From Escherichia phage teqdroes: a stretch of DNA of 64,000 nucleotides. Every line of letters starts with the position of its first letter. Within the stretch, counting starts at the first letter, position 1. The DNA lies in the sequence record NC_054932.1. One strand, given 5' to 3'. The notes under the pieces are model-generated. The model was given only the letters and a program-made list of their open reading frames with translations. It ran no database searches and was not told the DNA's origin. Positions 1 through 20,090 of this stretch are shown piece by piece. The position numbers and the translations under genes were made by a program.

Positions 1-1164
1 AAATCCCGTTTGATTAAAGCTTCCACTTCTAAAATGACTGCTGAACTGACTACATCTAAATTCTTTAATGAAAAGGATGTAATTCGTACAAAAATTCCAA
101 TGCTTAATATTGCTATTTCTGGTGCGATTGATGGCGGTATGCAGTCTGGTTTAACTATTTTCGCAGGGCCTTCTAAACACTTTAAATCAAATATGTCTTT
201 GACTATGGTTGCGGCATATTTGAACAAATATCCTGACGCGGTTTGTCTATTCTATGATAGCGAATTTGGTATTACTCCAGCTTATTTGCGATCCATGGGA
301 GTTGACCCGGAACGAGTAATTCATACGCCAATCCAGTCAGTTGAACAGCTGAAAATTGATATGGTGAATCAGCTTGAAGCTATTGAGCGCGGTGAAAAAG
401 TTATTGTATTCATCGACTCAATCGGTAATATGGCTTCTAAGAAAGAAACTGAAGATGCCTTGAATGAAAAATCTGTGGCAGATATGACTCGTGCTAAATC
501 GCTGAAGTCATTATTCCGTATTGTTACTCCTTACTTTAGCATTAAAAATATTCCATGCGTTGCGGTTAACCATACAATTGAAACAATTGAAATGTTTAGT
601 AAAACCGTGATGACAGGTGGTACAGGCGTAATGTATTCGGCTGATACTGTATTCATTATCGGTAAACGCCAGATTAAAGATGGTTCTGATCTTCAGGGGT
701 ATCAATTTGTTCTAAATGTAGAAAAATCTCGTACCGTTAAAGAAAAAAGTAAATTCTTTATTGATGTTAAATTTGACGGTGGCATCGATCCTTATTCTGG
801 ATTGTTAGATATGGCTCTTGAATTAGGATTTGTAGTAAAACCTAAAAATGGTTGGTATGCTCGTGAATTTCTTGATGAAGAAACCGGCGAGATGATTCGC
901 GAAGAAAAATCTTGGCGTGCAAAAGATACCAACTGCACTACATTCTGGGGTCCTTTATTTAAGCATCAACCATTCCGTGATGCTATTAAGCGTGCTTATC
1001 AGTTAGGTGCTATTGATAGTAATGAAATTGTTGAAGCGGAAGTTGATGAATTAATTAACTTAAAGGTTGAAAAATTTAAATCTCCAGAAAGTAAAAGTAA
1101 ATCAGCTGCTGATTTAGAAACTGACCTAGATCAGCTAAGTGATATGGAAGAATTTAATGAATAA
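1..1164 (+). CDS. uvsX: UvsX recombinase (RecA-like), 5'-truncated at window edge
   Basis: Translation matches T4 UvsX as recalled (…LIKASTSKLTAELT…KSPESKSKSAADLETDL…EEFNE); frame is open to position 1, so the N-terminus lies upstream of the window. Confidence 0.95.
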   Translation, partial: KSRLIKASTSKMTAELTTSKFFNEKDVIRTKIPMLNIAISGAIDGGMQSGLTIFAGPSKHFKSNMSLTMVAAYLNKYPDAVCLFYDSEFGITPAYLRSMGVDPERVIHTPIQSVEQLKIDMVNQLEAIERGEKVIVFIDSIGNMASKKETEDALNEKSVADMTRAKSLKSLFRIVTPYFSIKNIPCVAVNHTIETIEMFSKTVMTGGTGVMYSADTVFIIGKRQIKDGSDLQGYQFVLNVEKSRTVKEKSKFFIDVKFDGGIDPYSGLLDMALELGFVVKPKNGWYAREFLDEETGEMIREEKSWRAKDTNCTTFWGPLFKHQPFRDAIKRAYQLGAIDSNEIVEAEVDELINLKVEKFKSPESKSKSAADLETDLDQLSDMEEFNE

Positions 1165-1501
1165 AGATGATTTAGATTTAGATCTAGAAATTATCGATGA
1201 ATCCCCCTCTTCGGAGGGGGAAGAAGAAAGAAAAGAACGTCTTTTTAATGAATCTCTTAAGATAATTAAATCTGCCATGGAAAATGTTATCCAGGAGATT
1301 GTCATTAAACTAGAAGATGGTTCTACACACATTGTGTATGTGACAAAATTAGATTGGGTTGATGGAAAAGTCGTAATGGACTTTGCTGTTCTTGACCAAG
1401 AAAGAAAAGCTGAGTTAGCTCCTCATGTAGAAAAATGTATTACAATGCAATTACAAGATGCATTTAATAAAAGGTCAAAGAAAAAATTTAAATTCTTTTA
1501 A
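1157..1501 (+). CDS. 40: gp40 head vertex assembly protein
   Basis: ATG overlaps the uvsX stop; synteny uvsX-40-41 as in T4; acidic N-terminus. Confidence 0.7.
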   Translation: MNKDDLDLDLEIIDESPSSEGEEERKERLFNESLKIIKSAMENVIQEIVIKLEDGSTHIVYVTKLDWVDGKVVMDFAVLDQERKAELAPHVEKCITMQLQDAFNKRSKKKFKFF

Positions 1502-1510
1502 GGAGTAAGT

Positions 1511-2938
1511 GTGGTAGAAATTATTCTTTCTCATCTCATATTTGATCAAGCTTATTTTTCAAAAGTTTGGCCATATATGGATTCAGAATATTTTGAAAGT
1601 GGTCCAGCTAAAAATACATTCAAATTAATTAAATCTCATGTCAACGAGTATCATAGCGTTCCATCTATTAATGCGTTAAATGTTGCATTAGAAAATAGTT
1701 CATTTACTGAAACAGAATATTCTGGTGTAAAAACACTTATTTCAAAACTGGCTGATTCTCCGGAAGACCACAGCTGGTTAGTAAAAGAAACAGAAAAATA
1801 TGTTCAGCAAAGGGCGATGTTTAATGCTACGTCTAAAATAATCGAAATTCAAACTAATGCTGAGCTTCCTCCGGAAAAACGAAATAAGAAAATGCCGGAT
1901 GTTGGTGCTATTCCTGACATCATGCGACAAGCATTATCAATTTCATTTGATAGCTACGTTGGCCATGATTGGATGGATGACTACGAAGCACGTTGGCTAT
2001 CTTATATGAATAAAGCTCGTAAGGTTCCATTTAAACTCAGAATTCTGAACAAAATTACTAAAGGCGGAGCTGAGACTGGAACACTGAACGTTTTAATGGC
2101 TGGCGTTAACGTTGGTAAATCATTAGGATTGTGTTCATTAGCAGCAGATTATTTACAGCTCGGACATAATGTTCTTTACATTTCCATGGAAATGGCAGAA
2201 GAAGTCTGTGCTAAGCGTATTGACGCTAACATGCTTGATGTTTCTCTTGATGACATTGATGATGGGCATATTTCTTACGCTGAATATAAAGGAAAAATGG
2301 AAAAATGGCGTGAGAAATCTACCCTTGGTCGTTTAATCGTTAAACAGTATCCTACTGGTGGAGCAGATGCTAATACATTTCGATCACTTTTAAACGAATT
2401 GAAGCTCAAGAAGAATTTTGTTCCAACAATCATTATTGTCGACTATCTAGGTATTTGTAAATCTTGCCGCATTAGAGTTTATTCAGAAAATAGTTACACA
2501 ACTGTTAAAGCTATCGCAGAGGAATTGCGTGCTCTGGCTGTTGAAACCGAAACTGTTCTTTGGACTGCAGCACAGGTTGGTAAACAAGCTTGGGATTCTT
2601 CTGATGTTAACATGAGTGATATCGCAGAATCTGCTGGTCTTCCAGCGACAGCCGATTTTATGCTTGCGGTCATTGAAACCGAGGAGCTAGCAGCTGCTGA
2701 ACAACAACTCATTAAGCAAATCAAATCACGATATGGCGATAAGAACAAATGGAATAAGTTTTTGATGGGCGTTCAAAAAGGAAATCAGAAATGGGTAGAA
2801 ATTGAACAAGATTCTACTCCAACTGAAGTGAGTGAGGTAGCAGGTTCACAACAGATACAAGCTGAGCAGAATCGCTATCAAAGAAATGAATCCACTCGAG
2901 CTCAGTTAGATGCTTTGGCAAATGAATTAAAATTTTAG
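1511..2938 (+). CDS. 41: gp41 replicative DNA helicase (DnaB-like)
   Basis: 475 aa, GTG start 5 nt after AAGGAG; Walker A-like GVNVGKS; matches T4 gp41 length and sequence. Confidence 0.95.
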   Translation: MVEIILSHLIFDQAYFSKVWPYMDSEYFESGPAKNTFKLIKSHVNEYHSVPSINALNVALENSSFTETEYSGVKTLISKLADSPEDHSWLVKETEKYVQQRAMFNATSKIIEIQTNAELPPEKRNKKMPDVGAIPDIMRQALSISFDSYVGHDWMDDYEARWLSYMNKARKVPFKLRILNKITKGGAETGTLNVLMAGVNVGKSLGLCSLAADYLQLGHNVLYISMEMAEEVCAKRIDANMLDVSLDDIDDGHISYAEYKGKMEKWREKSTLGRLIVKQYPTGGADANTFRSLLNELKLKKNFVPTIIIVDYLGICKSCRIRVYSENSYTTVKAIAEELRALAVETETVLWTAAQVGKQAWDSSDVNMSDIAESAGLPATADFMLAVIETEELAAAEQQLIKQIKSRYGDKNKWNKFLMGVQKGNQKWVEIEQDSTPTEVSEVAGSQQIQAEQNRYQRNESTRAQLDALANELKF

Positions 2939-2968
2939 TTTACAAGCTGACAAGACTATGGTATAGTA
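2938..2968 (+). promoter_or_regulatory. T4-type early promoter (GTTTAC -35, TATAGT -10)
   Basis: GTTTAC at 2938-2943 and TATAGT at 2963-2968; -10 lies between the 8-bp inverted repeat ACAAGACT/AGTCTTGT. Confidence 0.55.
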
Positions 2969-2996
2969 GTCTTGTTGGTTAAATGAGGAGATTGTT

Positions 2997-3179
2997 ATGG
3001 AATTGGTAAAGGTAGTTTTTATGGGGTGGTTTAAGAATGAAAGCATGTTTACTAAAGAAATCACAATGATGAAAGATGACGTTCAATGGGCTACTACTCA
3101 ATATGCTGAAGTTAATAAAGCATTAGTTAAAGCTTTCATTGATGACAAGAAAGTGTGCGAAGTGGATTGCCGAGGATAA
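2997..3179 (+). CDS. dmd: Dmd-like antitoxin (inhibitor of host RnlA/LsoA), 61.5 position
   Basis: 60-aa ORF directly downstream of 41 with GAGGAG SD; size and position match T4 dmd. Confidence 0.7.
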   Translation: MELVKVVFMGWFKNESMFTKEITMMKDDVQWATTQYAEVNKALVKAFIDDKKVCEVDCRG

Positions 3180-3180
3180 T

Positions 3181-3438
3181 ATGCATATTGTTTTATTTAA
3201 ACCTACTCCGTATAACGTCAGGAAAAATACTCAATTCAAAGCACTTATTGCAGATACGTGGGAATTGGTGTTAGATATTCCAACAGAAGAAAGTCCTCCA
3301 TTTGGTCGAGTGGAATTTATTAAGTTTGCTGTACGTCCTACGAAGAGGCAGATTCGTCAGTATAAAAGGTATTTTCGTAAAATCGTTAAGCTAGAGAAAC
3401 AGTTTGTAACATGTGATTACGCAGAAGTTTTAAAATAG
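3181..3438 (+). CDS. hypothetical early protein (61.4 position)
   Basis: 85-aa ORF from ATG 3181 with GAGGA SD, basic C-terminus; the ORF-track start at 3139 is TTG and overlaps dmd. Confidence 0.5.
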   Translation: MHIVLFKPTPYNVRKNTQFKALIADTWELVLDIPTEESPPFGRVEFIKFAVRPTKRQIRQYKRYFRKIVKLEKQFVTCDYAEVLK

Positions 3439-3440
3439 CT

Positions 3441-3473
3441 GTTTACTTTTGTTGGAAATTGAGATACTATATA
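3441..3473 (+). promoter_or_regulatory. early promoter
   Basis: GTTTAC at 3441-3446, ACTATATAA -10 region. Confidence 0.5.
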
Positions 3474-3498
3474 AACATAAACTACTGAGGAGATTATC

Positions 3499-3792
3499 AT
3501 GAAAAAATTTATTTTTGCTACAATTTTTACTTTGGCTTCTTGTGCTGCTCAGCCTGCTATGGCAGGATATGATAAAGATTTGTGTGAATGGTCTATGACT
3601 GCAGATCAGACTGAAGTTGAAACTCAAATTGAAGCGGATATTATGAATATCGTTGAGCGCGATCGTCCTGAAATGAAAGCTGAAGTGCAAAAACAACTTA
3701 AGTCTGGTGGTGTAATGCAGTATAATTATGTTCTGTATTGCGATAAAAACTTTAATAACAAAAATATCGTAACCGAAATCACAGGCGAATAA
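3499..3792 (+). CDS. sp: Spackle periplasmic protein (gp5 lysozyme inhibitor, superinfection exclusion)
   Basis: 97 aa with signal peptide MKKFIFATIFTLASCAAQPAMA; near-identical to T4 Sp as recalled. Confidence 0.9.
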   Translation: MKKFIFATIFTLASCAAQPAMAGYDKDLCEWSMTADQTEVETQIEADIMNIVERDRPEMKAEVQKQLKSGGVMQYNYVLYCDKNFNNKNIVTEITGE

Positions 3793-3793
3793 T

Positions 3794-4426
3794 ATGATTT
3801 ATTATATGCACAAAAATCCACCGTTTAAATACGGTAAATTTCCTGATGCACAATGTTATAATATAACGCCTGATGAAAATAACCGTGGATATCTTATTGG
3901 CACAATTTTTGTAATTGTTAAAGATAACGAAATCGTTGCCTGGGCAGATTTTAAAGGTACAACATATGATGTTAATCCGGTGCCTTTCACATATTACAAT
4001 TTAATGGATTTGGCATACGATTATAATTGGTTTAATCATGACACTTTGGCTCATATTGAAGGTGTAGGATTTGATATTTCATATTCGGAATACACTTTAA
4101 GCCCTATGAGTCGAGCCCATAAAGAACCTGAATATTTTTCATTTAGGAAACGTGTAAACTTTAAACGCAGCACAGAGTATGTCGGTGGAATCTTTGTTAA
4201 AGATAATCGAATTATTCGTATTAATTATCCTTTGAGCGTTAGTCAAAAAGATATTGATGTTGATTTAGATTTCACTGAAAATAATATTAATAATATTGCT
4301 TCTGTGTATTTTGGTATCGATCACAAAATTGTAATATGTGGATATGAATTACCGTTTGAAGAACAGCCTAAAGTAAAAGTTTCTATTGACGATCAAATTT
4401 TTAATGCTTTTATGAATAAAGGTTAA
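3794..4426 (+). CDS. hypothetical protein, 61.2 position
   Basis: 210-aa ORF with internal repeated G-x-I-F/V-V-x-KDN segments; C-terminal IDDQIFNAFMNKG is shared with the next ORF. Confidence 0.6.
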   Translation: MIYYMHKNPPFKYGKFPDAQCYNITPDENNRGYLIGTIFVIVKDNEIVAWADFKGTTYDVNPVPFTYYNLMDLAYDYNWFNHDTLAHIEGVGFDISYSEYTLSPMSRAHKEPEYFSFRKRVNFKRSTEYVGGIFVKDNRIIRINYPLSVSQKDIDVDLDFTENNINNIASVYFGIDHKIVICGYELPFEEQPKVKVSIDDQIFNAFMNKG

Positions 4427-4427
4427 T

Positions 4428-4784
4428 ATGTATAGTTCTGAATTTTCATATTTAAAAATGGAAAAAATTTCATACGATTTTATAGATGAAAAGGTTTATT
4501 ACAGTTTCCATGAACCGCGTTTTAATAGTGAGGTTGGGTTTATTGTAGTAAAAGACAATTTCATTTTAAAGATATATTCGGCATTAAAGGATTTTCACTA
4601 CGAAAATATTAACCTAAAATTTGATAAAGAAAACGTTCGTAATTGTGCAGTAACAATTACAGGAAATAAAGGTACATGTGTTATGCTATCTGATGAAATT
4701 AATGATTTACTAAATGATGCAGAAAATATTACTGCGCCATCTATTGATGACCAAATTTTTAATGCTTTTATGAATAGAGGTTAA
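4428..4784 (+). CDS. hypothetical protein, 61.1 position, paralog of the preceding ORF
   Basis: 118-aa ORF ending IDDQIFNAFMNRG; start 1 nt after the previous stop. Confidence 0.55.
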   Translation: MYSSEFSYLKMEKISYDFIDEKVYYSFHEPRFNSEVGFIVVKDNFILKIYSALKDFHYENINLKFDKENVRNCAVTITGNKGTCVMLSDEINDLLNDAENITAPSIDDQIFNAFMNRG

Positions 4785-4785
4785 T

Positions 4786-4950
4786 ATGAAAACATATAAA
4801 GAATTTATTAAAGAAGATATGGTCGCTGGAGATTCAGGTGGTAATCCTGAAAATATCTCTACTGGAACAACGTCAGGCGCTGTAGTAAATAAAGGTCCTG
4901 AGCAGATTCCTAAAAAGAAAAAAGAGGAATCTAAAGAAAAAGAAGAGTAA
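4786..4950 (+). CDS. small Lys/Glu-rich ORF (54 aa)
   Basis: ATG 1 nt after the preceding stop and ending 2 nt before the gene 61 ATG; below the ORF-track size cutoff. Confidence 0.35.
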   Translation: MKTYKEFIKEDMVAGDSGGNPENISTGTTSGAVVNKGPEQIPKKKKEESKEKEE

Positions 4951-4952
4951 AA

Positions 4953-5981
4953 ATGTCATCAATACCTTGGATTGATAATGAGTTTGCATACCGTGCATTA
5001 GCTCATTTACCTAAATTCACACAAGTAAATAATAGTTCAACTTTTAAATTGCGGTTTAGATGTCCAGTTTGTGGAGATTCAAAAACCGACCAGAATAAAG
5101 CTCGTGGATGGTATTATGGTGATAATAATGAAGGAAATATTCATTGTTATAACTGTAATTATCATGCACCAATCGGAATATATTTAAAGGAGTTTGAACC
5201 TGATTTATATCGTGAGTATATCTTTGAAATAAGAAAAGAAAAAGGTAAAAGTCGTCCAGTAGAAAAACCTAAAGAACTTCCTAAGCAACCTGAGAAGAAA
5301 ATAATTAAATCTCTTCCGTCATGTGTTAGATTAGATAAACTGGCGGAAGACCATCCAATTATAAAATATGTAAAAGCTCGTTGTATTCCAAAGGATAAAT
5401 GGAAATATCTTTGGTTTACAACCGAATGGCCTAAATTAGTTAATAGCATAGCACCGGGAACATATAAAAAGGAAATACCTGAGCCTCGTCTTGTTATTCC
5501 AATTTATAATGCTAATGGAAAAGCTGAGTCTTTTCAAGGACGTGCATTAAAGAAAGATGCTCCCCAAAAATATATCACCATCAAAGCTTATCCTGAAGCA
5601 ACAAAAATTTACGGTGTTGAACGAGTTAAAGATGGTGATGTATATGTTCTAGAAGGACCCATCGATTCACTTTTTATTGAAAATGGTATAGCTATTACAG
5701 GTGGTCAATTAGACCTAGAAGTTGTTCCATTTAAAGATAGACGAGTGTGGGTTTTAGATAATGAACCTCGTCACCCTGACACTATCAAACGAATGACTAA
5801 ATTAGTTGATGCAGGAGAAAGGGTTATGTTTTGGGATAAATCTCCCTGGAAATCAAAAGATGTCAATGATATGATTAGAAAGGAAGGTGCAACCCCTGAA
5901 CAAATTATGGAATATATGAAAAATAATATTACCCAGGGGTTGATGGCTAAAATGCGGCTATCTAAATATGCTAAGATTTAA
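4953..5981 (+). CDS. 61: gp61 DNA primase
   Basis: 342 aa; zinc ribbon CPVCGDS…CYNCNYH; matches T4 primase. Confidence 0.95.
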   Translation: MSSIPWIDNEFAYRALAHLPKFTQVNNSSTFKLRFRCPVCGDSKTDQNKARGWYYGDNNEGNIHCYNCNYHAPIGIYLKEFEPDLYREYIFEIRKEKGKSRPVEKPKELPKQPEKKIIKSLPSCVRLDKLAEDHPIIKYVKARCIPKDKWKYLWFTTEWPKLVNSIAPGTYKKEIPEPRLVIPIYNANGKAESFQGRALKKDAPQKYITIKAYPEATKIYGVERVKDGDVYVLEGPIDSLFIENGIAITGGQLDLEVVPFKDRRVWVLDNEPRHPDTIKRMTKLVDAGERVMFWDKSPWKSKDVNDMIRKEGATPEQIMEYMKNNITQGLMAKMRLSKYAKI

Positions 5982-6178
5982 ATCAACCCAACTAAAGCAA
6001 ATGCTAAATCTACAAATGTATCAAGAGTAACTACTGGAATATTAACACCATGAGCAATAGCAATTGGTGATAAAACAAAATTCCAGAGTAAAATTCCTAT
6101 CATAGCAGAAATAGTAAAAGCTATACGTTTTTTATTACCTTTTATGGCATTAACAAGTGCCATTAATTTTTGTACCAT
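5978..6178 (-). CDS. hypothetical small hydrophobic protein, antisense to the early operon
   Basis: 66-aa minus-strand ORF; AAGGAGGA SD 5 nt upstream of its ATG; stop overlaps the gene 61 stop; two predicted hydrophobic helices. Confidence 0.45.
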   Translation of the reverse strand: MVQKLMALVNAIKGNKKRIAFTISAMIGILLWNFVLSPIAIAHGVNIPVVTLDTFVDLAFALVGLI

Positions 6179-6249
6179 GTGTCCTCCTTATTGCTTTATA
6201 TATTTATTGTATAATTAATCTACTAACCCATGAATTGAAAGGAAAAATA

Positions 6250-17565: not shown

Positions 17566-17937
17566 ATGTTTAAAATCGGTAAGAAATATTGCATTCGTGA
17601 AGGTGAAGAACAGAAATATCTACTTTCTGCTAGTAATAGGAATAGTTCTATTAATGTTGTAATATTGACTAGTGAATTTATCGTTGAAGATATGAAAGGT
17701 CATAATGTTATAATGATTAGTACAGCATCTGGAAATGATGGAAAAATTCTTCATAGTTGTCAGAGTAATGTTCTAATTTATGATGAAGAATTTGACTTCT
17801 TCGAAGAAGTCACAGAAGATTTTGATTTTGAATGCACTATTACTATGAAATCTGGCGACCCTCTTTCTTTTACAGTTAAAGATGAAAGAAGCCGTTTAAG
17901 AATTATTAGTCTCCTTCAAGCCATTAAATTTAAGTGA
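17566..17937 (+). CDS. hypothetical protein (123 aa)
   Basis: ORF tightly packed in the operon. Confidence 0.5.
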   Translation: MFKIGKKYCIREGEEQKYLLSASNRNSSINVVILTSEFIVEDMKGHNVIMISTASGNDGKILHSCQSNVLIYDEEFDFFEEVTEDFDFECTITMKSGDPLSFTVKDERSRLRIISLLQAIKFK

Positions 17938-18272: not shown

Positions 18273-20090
18273 ATGATTAAGAATGAAATTAAAATTCTGA
18301 GCGATATTGAACATATCAAAAAGCGTAGCGGCATGTATATTGGCTCTTCTGCTAATGAAATGCATGAGCGCTTTCTGTTTGGTAAATGGGAAAGTGTTCA
18401 GTATGTACCTGGTCTTGTTAAGCTTATTGATGAAATTATCGATAACTCAGTAGATGAAGGTATTCGTACTAAGTTTAAATTCGCAAATAAAATTAATGTT
18501 ACTATCAAAAACAATCAAGTAACAGTTGAAGATAACGGTCGTGGTATTCCACAAGCGATGGTTAAAACACCTACCGGTGAAGAAATTCCTGGTCCAGTTG
18601 CTGCTTGGACTATTCCAAAAGCGGGTGGTAACTTTGGTGATGATAAAGAACGTGTCACCGGTGGTATGAATGGTGTTGGTTCTAGTTTAACTAACATTTT
18701 TTCTGTGATGTTTGTCGGTGAAACTGGCGATGGTCAAAATAATATTGTAGTTCGTTGTTCAAATGGCATGGAAAATAAATCCTGGGAAACTATTCCTGGA
18801 AAATGGAAAGGAACTCGTGTTACTTTCATTCCAGATTTTATGTCATTTGAAACTAATGAGCTGTCCCAAGTTTATCTTGACATTACACTGGATCGTCTCC
18901 AGACACTTGCAGTAGTTTATCCTGATATTCAATTTACCTTTAATGGTAAAAAGGTTCAGGGTAATTTTAAGAAATATGCACGACAGTATGATGAACATGC
19001 TATTGTTCAAGAACAAGAAAATTGTTCTATTGCGGTTGGTCGTTCACCGGATGGATTTCGCCAATTAACTTATGTGAATAACATTCACACTAAGAATGGT
19101 GGCCATCACATTGACTGTGTTATGGATGATATTTGTGAAGACCTTATTCCACAAATCAAACGTAAGTTCAAAATTGATGTAACTAAAGCACGTGTCAAAG
19201 AATGTTTGACTATCGTTATGTTTGTCCGTGATATGAAAAACATGCGATTTGATTCTCAAACTAAAGAGCGTTTGACTTCTCCATTTGGTGAAATCCGTAG
19301 TCATATTCAACTTGACGCTAAAAAGATTTCACGCGCTATTCTAAATAATGAAGCAATTCTGATGCCAATTATTGAAGCTGCACTAGCTCGTAAATTGGCA
19401 GCAGAAAAAGCAGCTGAAACTAAAGCAGCTAAAAAGGCTTCTAAAGCTAAAGTTCATAAACATATCAAAGCGAATCTTTGCGGTAAAGATGCTGATACTA
19501 CTCTTTTCTTGACTGAGGGTGATTCTGCTATCGGATATCTTATTGATGTTCGTGATAAAGAACTTCATGGTGGTTATCCATTGCGTGGTAAAGTTCTCAA
19601 CAGTTGGGGTATGTCATATGCTGATATGCTTAAAAACAAAGAACTATTTGATATTTGCGCAATCACTGGATTAGTTCTTGGTGAAAAAGCTGAAAACTTG
19701 AATTATCATAATATTGCTATTATGACTGATGCTGACCATGATGGTCTAGGAAGCATTTATCCTTCTCTTCTTGGATTTTTTAGTAATTGGCCAGAACTGT
19801 TTGAGCAAGGACGAATTCGCTTTGTCAAAACTCCTGTAATCATCGCTCAGGTCGGTAAAAAACAAGAATGGTTTTATACAGTCGCTGAATATGAGAGTGC
19901 CAAAGATGCTCTACCTAAACATAGCATCCGTTATATTAAAGGACTTGGCTCTTTGGAAAAATCTGAATATCGTGAGATGATTCAAAATCCAGTATATGAT
20001 GTTGTTAAACTTCCTGAGAACTGGAAAGAGCTTTTTGAAATGCTCATGGGAGATAATGCTGACCTTCGCAAAGAATGGATGAGCCAGTAG
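18273..20090 (+). CDS. 39: DNA topoisomerase II large subunit gp39 (GyrB-like), uninterrupted
   Basis: 605 aa with GHKL ATPase and TOPRIM motifs; longer than the T4 gp39 I recall (~516 aa), consistent with a fused 39+60 reading frame. Confidence 0.9.
   Translation: MIKNEIKILSDIEHIKKRSGMYIGSSANEMHERFLFGKWESVQYVPGLVKLIDEIIDNSVDEGIRTKFKFANKINVTIKNNQVTVEDNGRGIPQAMVKTPTGEEIPGPVAAWTIPKAGGNFGDDKERVTGGMNGVGSSLTNIFSVMFVGETGDGQNNIVVRCSNGMENKSWETIPGKWKGTRVTFIPDFMSFETNELSQVYLDITLDRLQTLAVVYPDIQFTFNGKKVQGNFKKYARQYDEHAIVQEQENCSIAVGRSPDGFRQLTYVNNIHTKNGGHHIDCVMDDICEDLIPQIKRKFKIDVTKARVKECLTIVMFVRDMKNMRFDSQTKERLTSPFGEIRSHIQLDAKKISRAILNNEAILMPIIEAALARKLAAEKAAETKAAKKASKAKVHKHIKANLCGKDADTTLFLTEGDSAIGYLIDVRDKELHGGYPLRGKVLNSWGMSYADMLKNKELFDICAITGLVLGEKAENLNYHNIAIMTDADHDGLGSIYPSLLGFFSNWPELFEQGRIRFVKTPVIIAQVGKKQEWFYTVAEYESAKDALPKHSIRYIKGLGSLEKSEYREMIQNPVYDVVKLPENWKELFEMLMGDNADLRKEWMSQ

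Follow-up and report, generated by a model that had tools for sequence, protein, structure and literature searches.

A probable T-even anti-toxin-antitoxin island between the helicase and primase genes of Escherichia phage teqdroes and its half-size relative of AdfA

The closest described counterpart of the locus reported here is the group of small genes lying between genes 41 and 61 of phage T4, which "may be an anti-TA island" (Srikant et al. 2022 eLife, PMC9391042). In T4, Dmd neutralises RnlA and LsoA (PMC9391042; HIDEN-SEQ preprint), dmd and 61.4 are transcribed from an early promoter (Srikant 2022, PMC9391042), and throughout the T-even phages Dmd and TifA share an operon (PMC9391042). 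Spackle has been described as an early gene product and in its complex with gp5 (PMC7677548), while 61.1 is listed among the conserved T4-like ORFs without function (PMC1524935). The anti-DarT factor AdfA was studied in RB69 (LeRoux et al. 2022), in which escape mutations map to adfA; Arg164 of the RB69 protein is non-binding, whereas His at this site, as in the R164H variant in a two-hybrid assay, enables DarT1 binding and neutralisation, and solely His and Arg variants were described at this position in a panel of 13 phages (PMC11257639). Deletion of adfA in T4 is without DarTG1 phenotype, even in the absence of adfN (PMC11257639), so that AdfA may be a minor factor or may be aimed at unknown DarT variants.

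The stretch analysed, the window, comprises 64,000 nucleotides of Escherichia phage teqdroes (NC_054932.1), a Tequatrovirus (T4-like) genome that at the island locus is 99.7% identical to Escherichia phage 303Ecol101PP. The locus is bounded upstream by the gene 41 replicative helicase (1511..2938, + strand; 475 aa, 99.8% identity to T4 gp41) and downstream by the gene 61 primase (4953..5981, + strand; 342 aa, 98.8% identity to T4 gp61), and the order dmd-tifA-sp-adfA-61.1 is common to this phage and T4; the extra gene p118 is inserted here between adfA and 61.1, whereas T4 lacks it. Adjacent small genes directed at different host defences and variably present among relatives are what defines an anti-defence island, and this is the organisation found: orthologues of three of the six genes have experimental anti-toxin activity against three toxin-antitoxin systems (PMC9391042, PMC11257639, PMC10853763), and the gene content differs among T4, T2, RB69, VR25 and this phage. 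Identity to T4, which ranges from 92 to 100% in 41, dmd, tifA, sp, 61.1 and 61, falls to 60-89% in adfA. The locus is thus very probably the "anti-TA island" of T-even phages, a hypervariable slot between the helicase and primase genes. As a published cluster of small early genes, with Dmd, TifA and AdfA acting against toxin-antitoxin systems and Spackle against superinfection, it is already known, and p118, a half-size AdfA relative of 118 residues, is its sole uncharacterised piece.

An initial annotation had proposed a compact counter-defence/exclusion islet at this place; its five ORFs are all found on the + strand at the coordinates it gave, each assignment that it made or suspected holds, and PMC9391042 agrees with the general reading. 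The word exclusion leaves room for Spackle as a superinfection-exclusion protein; Spackle and 61.1 are not counter-defence genes and the island is therefore functionally mixed. The likeness to anti-CRISPR and anti-restriction islands consists in small, tightly packed, early and variably present inhibitor genes with different targets side by side; the difference is that the targets here are toxin-antitoxin systems, and none of the six ORFs was identified as an aca-type regulator gene. The products would be stoichiometric inhibitors acting independently of each other, and the mechanisms shown for the T4 or RB69 orthologues of Dmd, TifA, Spackle and AdfA presumably extend to the proteins of the window at about 74-100% identity. 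On sequence alone, resistance of the phage to RnlAB/LsoAB and, with a potency like that of T4, to ToxIN at chromosomal level is predicted, as is the exclusion of superinfecting T-even phages. The main value of these results is a correct annotation; the remaining leads, namely the Asn167 allele of AdfA, p118 and a duplicated gene tail, are modest.

Two early sigma-70-type promoters would drive two units, dmd-tifA and sp-adfA-p118-61.1-61. The promoter of the dmd-tifA operon (2938..2967, + strand) consists of GTTTACA and TATAGT separated by 17 nt, with an upstream TG, and scores 10 of 12 matches with the TG in the promoter scan; its hexamers are identical in T4, and the sole T4 difference in the 76-nt junction is located downstream of the -10. 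A second early promoter-like site, upstream of sp (3441..3470, + strand; GTTTACT, 17 nt, TACTAT), reaches 8 of 12 by manual reading, below the scan threshold; its sequence is also identical in T4, where one base differs upstream of the -35. Both early promoter regions therefore match T4 save for one base each, and promoters are annotated at both places in the record of phage Lutter, which supports the two early promoters of the initial annotation, the second with its 8 of 12 only. The overlapping start and stop codons reported there are instead an error, because the junctions dmd|tifA, sp|adfA, adfA|p118 and p118|61.1 read TAA-T-ATG, with one base between the two codons; it is T4 that has an overlapping TAATG at sp|adfA, in comparison to TAATATG here. 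At the TAA-T-ATG junctions inside the units, the Shine-Dalgarno sequence lies within the last codons of the upstream gene, and this arrangement, together with the abutment of the codons, suggests coupled translation. Two gaps of 58 and 60 nt contain the promoters. The terminator scan returned no intrinsic-terminator-like site, none being found between the two units, and positions 2700-5200 gave no match to Rfam elements at E up to 1.

The first unit begins with dmd (61.5; 2997..3179, + strand), whose 60-aa product, recognised in the initial annotation as Dmd-like, matches Pfam Dmd (PF17587) along the whole profile (E 1.6e-46, positions 1-60 of 60), is 100% identical to T4 Dmd and matches PDB 5hy3_B, the chain of T4 Dmd in a structure with bound RnlA, with E 1.8e-37. 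From this identity, the Dmd of the window is expected to neutralise RnlA and LsoA as an antitoxin-like direct inhibitor that would bind these RNase toxins and block them. The start codon of tifA (61.4; 3181..3438, + strand) is 1 nt past the dmd stop, an arrangement as in PMC9391042. Its 85-aa product is 96.5% identical to T4 gp61.4 (= TifA), so that the tentative mention of a ToxN-inhibiting TifA near this slot was right, and it is basic as had been observed (17 K+R vs. 9 D+E, pI 9.9); it matches Pfam DUF7279 with E 5e-20, and the sequence search of solved structures gave no matches for it. The motif RPTKRQIRQ occupies residues 52-60, with the numbering of RB69 TifA, and the RNA-binding residues K55, R56 and R59, replaced in the K55A R56A R59A mutant used in PMC10853763, are all kept. 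TifA, as an RNA-binding inhibitor of the ToxN endoribonuclease, would bind ToxN plus RNA and trap the toxin in an inactive ribonucleoprotein, according to the mechanism of PMC10853763. Position 41 is Phe as in T4, the high-potency Ser or His being absent, and a weaker, T4-like inhibition of ToxN is therefore predicted; this is a property of the allele and no bar to membership in the TifA family.

The second unit opens with sp (61.3; 3499..3792, + strand), encoding the 97-aa Spackle, a periplasmic inhibitor of the gp5 tail lysozyme in superinfection exclusion. The protein matches Pfam T4_Spackle (PF25676) along the entire profile (E 5.8e-45, positions 1-96 of 96), is 93.8% identical to its T4 counterpart and matches PDB 6x6o_A with E 7.7e-60. 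The signal peptide noticed in the initial annotation corresponds to residues 1-22 (3499-3564, + strand), in which the hydrophobic N-terminus MKKFIFATIFTLASCAAQPAMA ends in AMA; residues 23-97 align with 7cn6_A, the mature chain as crystallised, and this agrees with a cleavage after Ala22. Spackle would be exported to the periplasm and would inhibit there the gp5 tail lysozyme of superinfecting T-even phages. In the RB69 locus, differently from this one, imm and imm.1 are located between tifA and sp.

The larger of two ORFs previously described as paralogous and left unnamed is adfA (61.2; 3794..4426, + strand), which fits the DarTG assay that had been proposed for the locus. Its 210-aa product matches Pfam AdfA (PF23813) with E 3.2e-139 and 461.7 bits (cut-off 27) across the full profile (positions 1-211 of 211), and the gene is located between sp and 61.1, directly upstream of p118. 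AdfA is 73% identical to T4 gp61.2 and about 83% identical to the full-length RB69 protein, with which it shares the C-terminal tail and the position after sp; the N-terminal half is closer to the RB69 type. The specificity site differs from both, being Asn167 here vs. His165 in T4 and Arg164 in RB69, whose escape mutant has the His of T4, and Asn is found at this site in 7 of 30 sampled sequences. As the protein has Asn167 and not His, DarT1 activity cannot be assumed even though it is a family member; from its orthologues, it would bind a DarT ADP-ribosyltransferase toxin, and the Asn167 allele, outside the published His and Arg variants, could define a third DarT specificity. A search of solved structures by sequence returned for AdfA a single chance-level match (E 0.35).

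The smaller paralogue, p118 (4428..4784, + strand), is at the sequence level a single-domain relative of AdfA and not an AdfA orthologue: it reaches 31.9 bits against Pfam AdfA (cut-off 27), covering just profile positions 113-211, and belongs to its own PHROG (phrog_4122, E 2e-72). BLASTP aligns it to the C-terminal half of AdfA with 37% identity over 106 aa (E 6e-11), and, since both proteins are above the Pfam threshold, the paralogy proposed for the 210-aa and 118-aa ORFs is borne out. In a wider profile search for the family among 1.84 billion cluster representatives just 10 proteins were retrieved, and there are consequently no distant homologues informing function. A derivation of AdfA from an internal duplication of a p118-like module was also considered; BLASTP of the N-terminal vs. 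the C-terminal half gave no alignment. The two halves have a similar predicted secondary structure (five strands, then a helix), but the AdfA model is poor (mean pLDDT 52.3) and for this reason the duplication is not claimed.

Both adfA and p118 end in a 49-nt direct repeat, whose copies are 94% identical at a spacing of 358. Copy 1, the 3' tail of adfA (4382..4430, + strand), encodes SIDDQIFNAFMNKG, followed by the stop and by the start of p118, and carries a "promoter" annotation in the Lutter record; copy 2, the 3' tail of p118 (4740..4788, + strand), is identical to T4 across the 49-nt repeat unit and is the homologue of the T4 middle promoter P61. The consensus of T4 MotA-dependent middle promoters is a box (a/t)(a/t)(a/t)TGCTTtA with a spacing of 12 +/- 1 bp to a downstream -10 TAtaaT, which for P61 should agree with the mapped T4 start. 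In copy 2, positions 4760-4787 hold the MotA box TAATGCTTTT (4760-4769), 12 nt and the -10 TAATAT (4782-4787), with an expected start at 4794; the T4 P61 start at 19122 (PMC2988021 Table 1) follows the assigned -10 TAATAT by exactly 7 nt and the A of the 61.1 ATG by 8 nt. Copy 1 presents at 4402-4429 the same box (4402-4411), 12-nt spacer and -10 (4424-4429), so that the P61-type motif is present twice in this phage as judged from the letters of the two tails. The motif in the adfA tail would start transcription 8 nt inside p118, counted from the A of ATG, and cannot therefore express full-length p118.

The shared tail would do two jobs, encoding a conserved C-terminal peptide (DDQIFNAFM) and providing a predicted MotA-dependent P61 for the primase. 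DDQIFNAFM ends all sampled full-length AdfA-type and single-domain proteins from the 1.84 billion cluster representatives; in the VR25 proteins of 145 and 119 aa the peptide is retained while synonymous DNA changes alter the MotA box, which points to a constraint at the peptide level. As a direct repeat, the tail moreover lends itself to recombination, by which cassettes could be gained or lost, a concrete and testable route for changes in the content of the island, and recombination between the 49-bp copies would explain the three states that are found: adfA only in T4, p118 only in T2 and both in this phage. Among phage records, 485 have the AdfA N-terminal half, 331 have p118 and at least 156 have the adfA|p118 junction.

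The T2 locus (sp, p118, 61.1) has a p118 that is 97.5% identical, with identical tail and P61 motif, and differs in being without adfA, p118 being the sole AdfA-family gene annotated there. Directly upstream of T2 p118, a 14-nt stretch, TAGAGGTTAGTATG, resembles the end of an AdfA-type tail and suggests an adfA deletion in the T2 lineage. In the T4 adfA tail, three diagnostic positions have p118-type bases, the outcome expected of a deletion between the repeats; RB69, with no p118-like ORF among its translated proteins, has the same bases at two silent positions and at the third CGA, also Arg. These bases may hence be ancestral, and they do not tell whether p118 was gained or lost. A similar organisation is known in the PeSL cassettes (PMC2839356, PMC4122927), where variable ORFs of a hyperplastic region are bordered by short regulatory repeats, plausible sites of homologous exchange preserving downstream expression; these are intergenic early promoters with a stem-loop, whereas here a MotA-type middle promoter lies in coding 3' ends that also encode a conserved peptide.

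The product of p118 may be a further stand-alone toxin-binding module of the AdfA family. A wider proposal, put forward tentatively and with the odds rather against it, is that p118 and the single-domain forms of 119-145 aa in other T-even genera are a distinct class of stand-alone toxin inhibitors and that the two-domain AdfA was assembled from a module of this kind; DDQIFNAFM(N/K)RG, as an invariant helix at the C-terminus, would be a common docking peptide for the toxin or, more speculatively, for the gp45 clamp, so bringing the inhibitor to replicating DNA, the place of DarT action, and the promoter-bearing 49-bp tail would be a recombination handle with which modules are stacked or dropped according to the variants of DarT, or of other toxins, in the host. 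Alternatively, p118 could be what is left of a partial tandem duplication of adfA, without function and kept only because its 3' end contains the promoter and the ribosome-binding site for 61.1 and primase expression. Its alignment solely to the C-terminal half of AdfA, the coincidence of its tail with the mapped P61 and the fact that T4 does well without it are in line with this explanation, which is nevertheless unlikely: in 330 of the 331 matching records an intact frame covers at least 80% of p118, p118-like proteins persist at 44-50% identity in Gaprivervirus phages, single-domain relatives of 119-125 aa form separate clusters, the AlphaFold model is confident (mean pLDDT 80.7), T2 has p118 as its only annotated gene of the family, and such a promoter motif is already provided by the adfA tail, which makes p118 superfluous in this respect.

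Still less probable is a clustering without functional meaning, in which a recombination-permissive "hyperplastic region" takes any small early gene and the counter-defence theme is coincidental. The contents are indeed mixed, with Spackle as an exclusion protein and 61.1, and are reshuffled between genera, as indicated by imm/imm.1 in RB69 and by VR25, where extra ORFs and a second tifA-like gene follow the p118-like gene; promoter-containing repeats (PeSLs) mediate such shuffling in T4-like phages (PMC4122927). However, anti-toxin activity in the orthologues of half of the genes and the conserved co-operonic state of Dmd and TifA argue against coincidence, and the permissive region accounts for the arrival of genes, not for their function, so that it complements the anti-TA island reading. 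A role of adfA, p118 and 61.1 as replication accessory factors, transcribed together with the primase and anchored at the replisome through an acidic-hydrophobic C-terminal tail loosely like the gp45-clamp-binding C-termini of gp43, gp33 and gp55, is very unlikely, since the location between helicase and primase, the shared primase promoter, the C-terminal, acidic, hydrophobic and predicted helical AdfA tail SIDDQIFNAFMNRG and the T4 deletion without DarTG1 phenotype are opposed by a just loose likeness to the published gp45-binding motifs, whose LDFLF core is absent, by the DarT1 binding of RB69 AdfA(R164H) and the escape mutations in adfA (PMC11257639), and by the dispensable and variable presence of the genes (T2 without adfA, T4 without p118), unlike replication factors.

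The last gene before the primase, 61.1 (4786..4950, + strand), is a conserved ORF of 54 aa with 96.3% identity to T4 gp61.1 that belongs to phrog_1823 (E 7e-34) and gave no match in the Pfam search. As regards p118, the gene is widespread, and T2, where no other gene of the AdfA family was found, offers a clean background for knocking it out.

The window belongs to a Tequatrovirus (T4-like) genome, as established by the ORF listing and similarity searches, and its plus strand corresponds to the minus strand of the T4 reference. The genes follow the order uvsX, 40, 41, dmd, 61.4 (tifA), sp, 61.2 (adfA), a 118-aa ORF (p118), 61.1, and 61, and all ORFs of the initial annotation are recovered at the same coordinates. 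The 2.1-kb locus has matches in 663 phage records, the closest being Escherichia phage 303Ecol101PP (99.7%). The interpretation of the small genes at 2997-4784 as a counter-defence/exclusion islet is supported; the islet as such is already published, with near-identical loci in hundreds of GenBank records, and what stays of interest is p118, the Asn167 allele of AdfA, and a repeated tail with a dual purpose. The initial description of overlapping start and stop codons does not hold: the sequence at four junctions is TAATATG, in which one base separates the stop from the start, an arrangement that could allow translational coupling. Gene 61.1 (4786-4950), just beyond the range first considered, is conserved in T4-like phages as an ORF without assigned function.

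The two ORFs proposed as paralogues, of 210 and 118 aa, are indeed related (37% identity over 106 aa, E 6e-11), and the larger, previously unnamed, is AdfA, anti-DarT factor A, encoded by adfA (3794-4426; T4 gene 61.2) and matching Pfam PF23813 over the full length with 461.7 bits. It is 73% identical to T4 AdfA and about 83% to that of RB69. The orthologue AdfA(His) binds DarT1; at the same site, Arg164 of RB69 gives no DarT1 binding, while His, present in T4 and in an escape mutant, gives binding and allows DarT1 neutralisation. In the published 13-phage panel, His and Arg are the only variants described at this position, which in the window is Asn167 (codon AAT at 4292-4294, one base off the His codon CAT). 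In a sample of 30 family sequences, 22 have His here, 7 have Asn, and 1 has Arg, so that the Asn allele is recurrent; AdfA(Asn167) may target some DarT variant. The importance of AdfA has been tempered by later findings: T4 without adfA has no DarTG1 phenotype, even when adfN is also missing; AdfN (gene 30.3) is the chief anti-DarTG1 factor, and AdfM (tk.4) is reported as an anti-DarTG2 factor.

The AdfA paralogue p118 (4428-4784, 118 aa) is absent from T4 and found in 331 phage records, including T2, where it occurs without adfA. Since the adfA|p118 junction is present in at least 156 records and the N-terminal half of AdfA in 485, all three states (adfA only, p118 only, and both) are common. 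The family of p118 is very small, with 5 clusters at 90% identity; searching 1.84 billion cluster representatives with a profile yielded only 10 proteins, namely AdfA, p118, three further single-domain forms of 119–125 aa, and fragments. Distant genera retain the intact ORF at 44–50% identity, which argues that p118 is a real gene, and its product might be a further toxin-binding module. The p118 position aligned with Asn167 is also Asn (N72).

At their 3' ends, adfA and p118 share a direct repeat of 49 nt (4382-4430 and 4740-4788, 46/49 identical), outside which they have diverged to about 37% protein identity. The DNA of this tail matches P61, an experimentally mapped, MotA-dependent middle promoter of T4 whose start site is 19122 (PMC2988021 Table 1). 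This start is 8 nt downstream of the A of the 61.1 ATG, which places TAATAT, composed of the stop TAA, a T, and the AT of the next ATG, at -12 to -7; the MotA-box-like TAATGCTTTT is located 12 nt upstream of TAATAT, with consensus and spacing as published. The motif is present twice in the window, before 61.1 and before p118, with predicted starts at 4794 and 4436, respectively, and both copies are annotated as promoters in phage Lutter. The Shine-Dalgarno sequence for the next gene (AGAGG or AAAGG) is also within the tail. At the protein level, the conserved tail peptide DDQIFNAFM(N/K)(K/R)(G/D) ends all full-length AdfA-type and single-domain proteins sampled. In VR25 (Gaprivervirus), two neighbouring genes (145 and 119 aa) have different bodies and the same tail, and synonymous changes in the coding sequence of these tails alter the MotA box. 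The tail appears to be subject to two constraints, as promoter and as peptide. Being a direct repeat, it lends itself to the deletion or insertion of p118 by homologous exchange and might mediate cassette turnover; T4 rearranges this very locus via short homologies, and cassette shuffling in T4-like phages is mediated by promoter-bearing repeats (PeSLs).

In comparison to T4, the variable part is the slot between sp and 61.1: identity is 92–100% over 41, dmd, tifA, sp, 61.1, and 61 and decreases to 60–89% in adfA. A mosaic boundary lies at 3761-3910, where DNA identity to T4 is about 97% on the sp side of the sp|adfA junction and about 60% on the adfA side; the Spackle end (IVTEITGE) and the N-terminal half of AdfA are RB69-like rather than T4-like. 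In T2 (L003, its locus, 2466-2515), after the sp stop comes TAGAGGTTAGTATG, which matches the AdfA-type tail end at 13 of 14 positions, and then directly p118; this 14-nt stretch looks like the scar of a deletion and suggests the loss of adfA in the T2 lineage. Relative to T4, the difference in p118 may be a gain or a loss. Other genera have different cargo in the same slot. RB69 (L004, its locus, 2318-5899) has extra ORFs and, between tifA and sp, the superinfection immunity genes imm and imm.1, and VR25 (L006, its locus, 213-3433) encodes two TifA-like proteins, VR25_040 and VR25_036, both containing RPTKRQIR, as well as two proteins with the DDQIFNAFM tail.

The Dmd-like ORF (dmd, 2997-3179, 60 aa) encodes a protein 100% identical to T4 Dmd (Pfam Dmd, E 1.6e-46; PDB 5hy3_B match); the orthologue inhibits RnlA, and from this identity the same activity is expected here. 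The basic 85-aa ORF in the 61.4 slot (tifA, 3181-3438, pI 9.9) is 96.5% identical to T4 gp61.4 and matches DUF7279; the initial tentative identification with TifA was correct. When T4 was evolved on hosts with toxIN, Srikant et al. (2022) found dmd-tifA amplified (PMC9391042), and TifA binds both ToxN and RNA, trapping ToxN in an inactive ribonucleoprotein (PMC10853763). The window TifA, which retains the RNA-binding residues K55, R56, and R59, would by its identity also inhibit ToxN. Ser or His at residue 41 determines stronger inhibition and the window protein has the weaker, T4-type F41; a T4-like potency is therefore predicted, sufficient against chromosomal toxIN and insufficient against plasmid-borne toxIN. 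In phage Pinarejo (L007, its locus, 244-552), the tifA ORF is extended to 102 aa, past the usual stop position into the sp promoter region.

Spackle, recognised initially with its signal peptide, is encoded by sp (3499-3792, 97 aa; Pfam E 5.8e-45; PDB 6x6o), and the alignment of the mature crystallised chain begins at residue 23, in keeping with a predicted signal peptide of 22 residues that ends in AMA. Spackle acts against superinfecting phage by inhibiting the lysozyme domain of their gp5 tail spike (PMC7677548), and its role is exclusion rather than counter-defence; the window orthologue probably acts likewise, given its identity.

Of the two proposed early promoters, the first consists of GTTTACA, 17 nt, and TATAGT, with TG (2938-2967; 10/12 in the promoter scan), and the second, a promoter-like site, of GTTTACT, 17 nt, and TACTAT (3441-3470; 8/12 by hand, unlisted by the scan). 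The two sequences are nearly identical in T4, the independent annotation of phage Lutter has a promoter at both places, and the early promoter of the dmd-tifA operon has been demonstrated in the orthologue. A 10-bp inverted repeat, GACAAGACTA / TAGTCTTGTT (2949-2976), also present in T4, straddles the -10 of the dmd promoter (DNA fold z-score -3.76, with 0/200 shuffles folding as well); no such structure is found in the sp promoter region. The ribosome-binding regions of dmd (2984-3002) and sp (3486-3504) are near-copies, TGAGGAGATT..ATG (repeat family D3), and both contain GGAG, the motif that the T4 RegB endoribonuclease cleaves in early mRNAs.

Downstream of the primase, T4 has dam directly after gene 61, whereas in the window gene 61 is followed by a minus-strand ORF and then by gene 56; no homologue of T4 Dam, expected near 6000-6200, was detected in the 64-kb window when the first 208 residues of the T4 protein were used as the tblastn query. 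The minus-strand ORF (5978-6178), encoding a hydrophobic protein of 66 aa, overlaps the stop codon of the primase gene. Its counterpart in T4, at 17738-17935, is 94% conserved and carries no feature in the RefSeq record; the annotations of T2, RB69 (RB69ORF029w), and VR25 list it as hypothetical.
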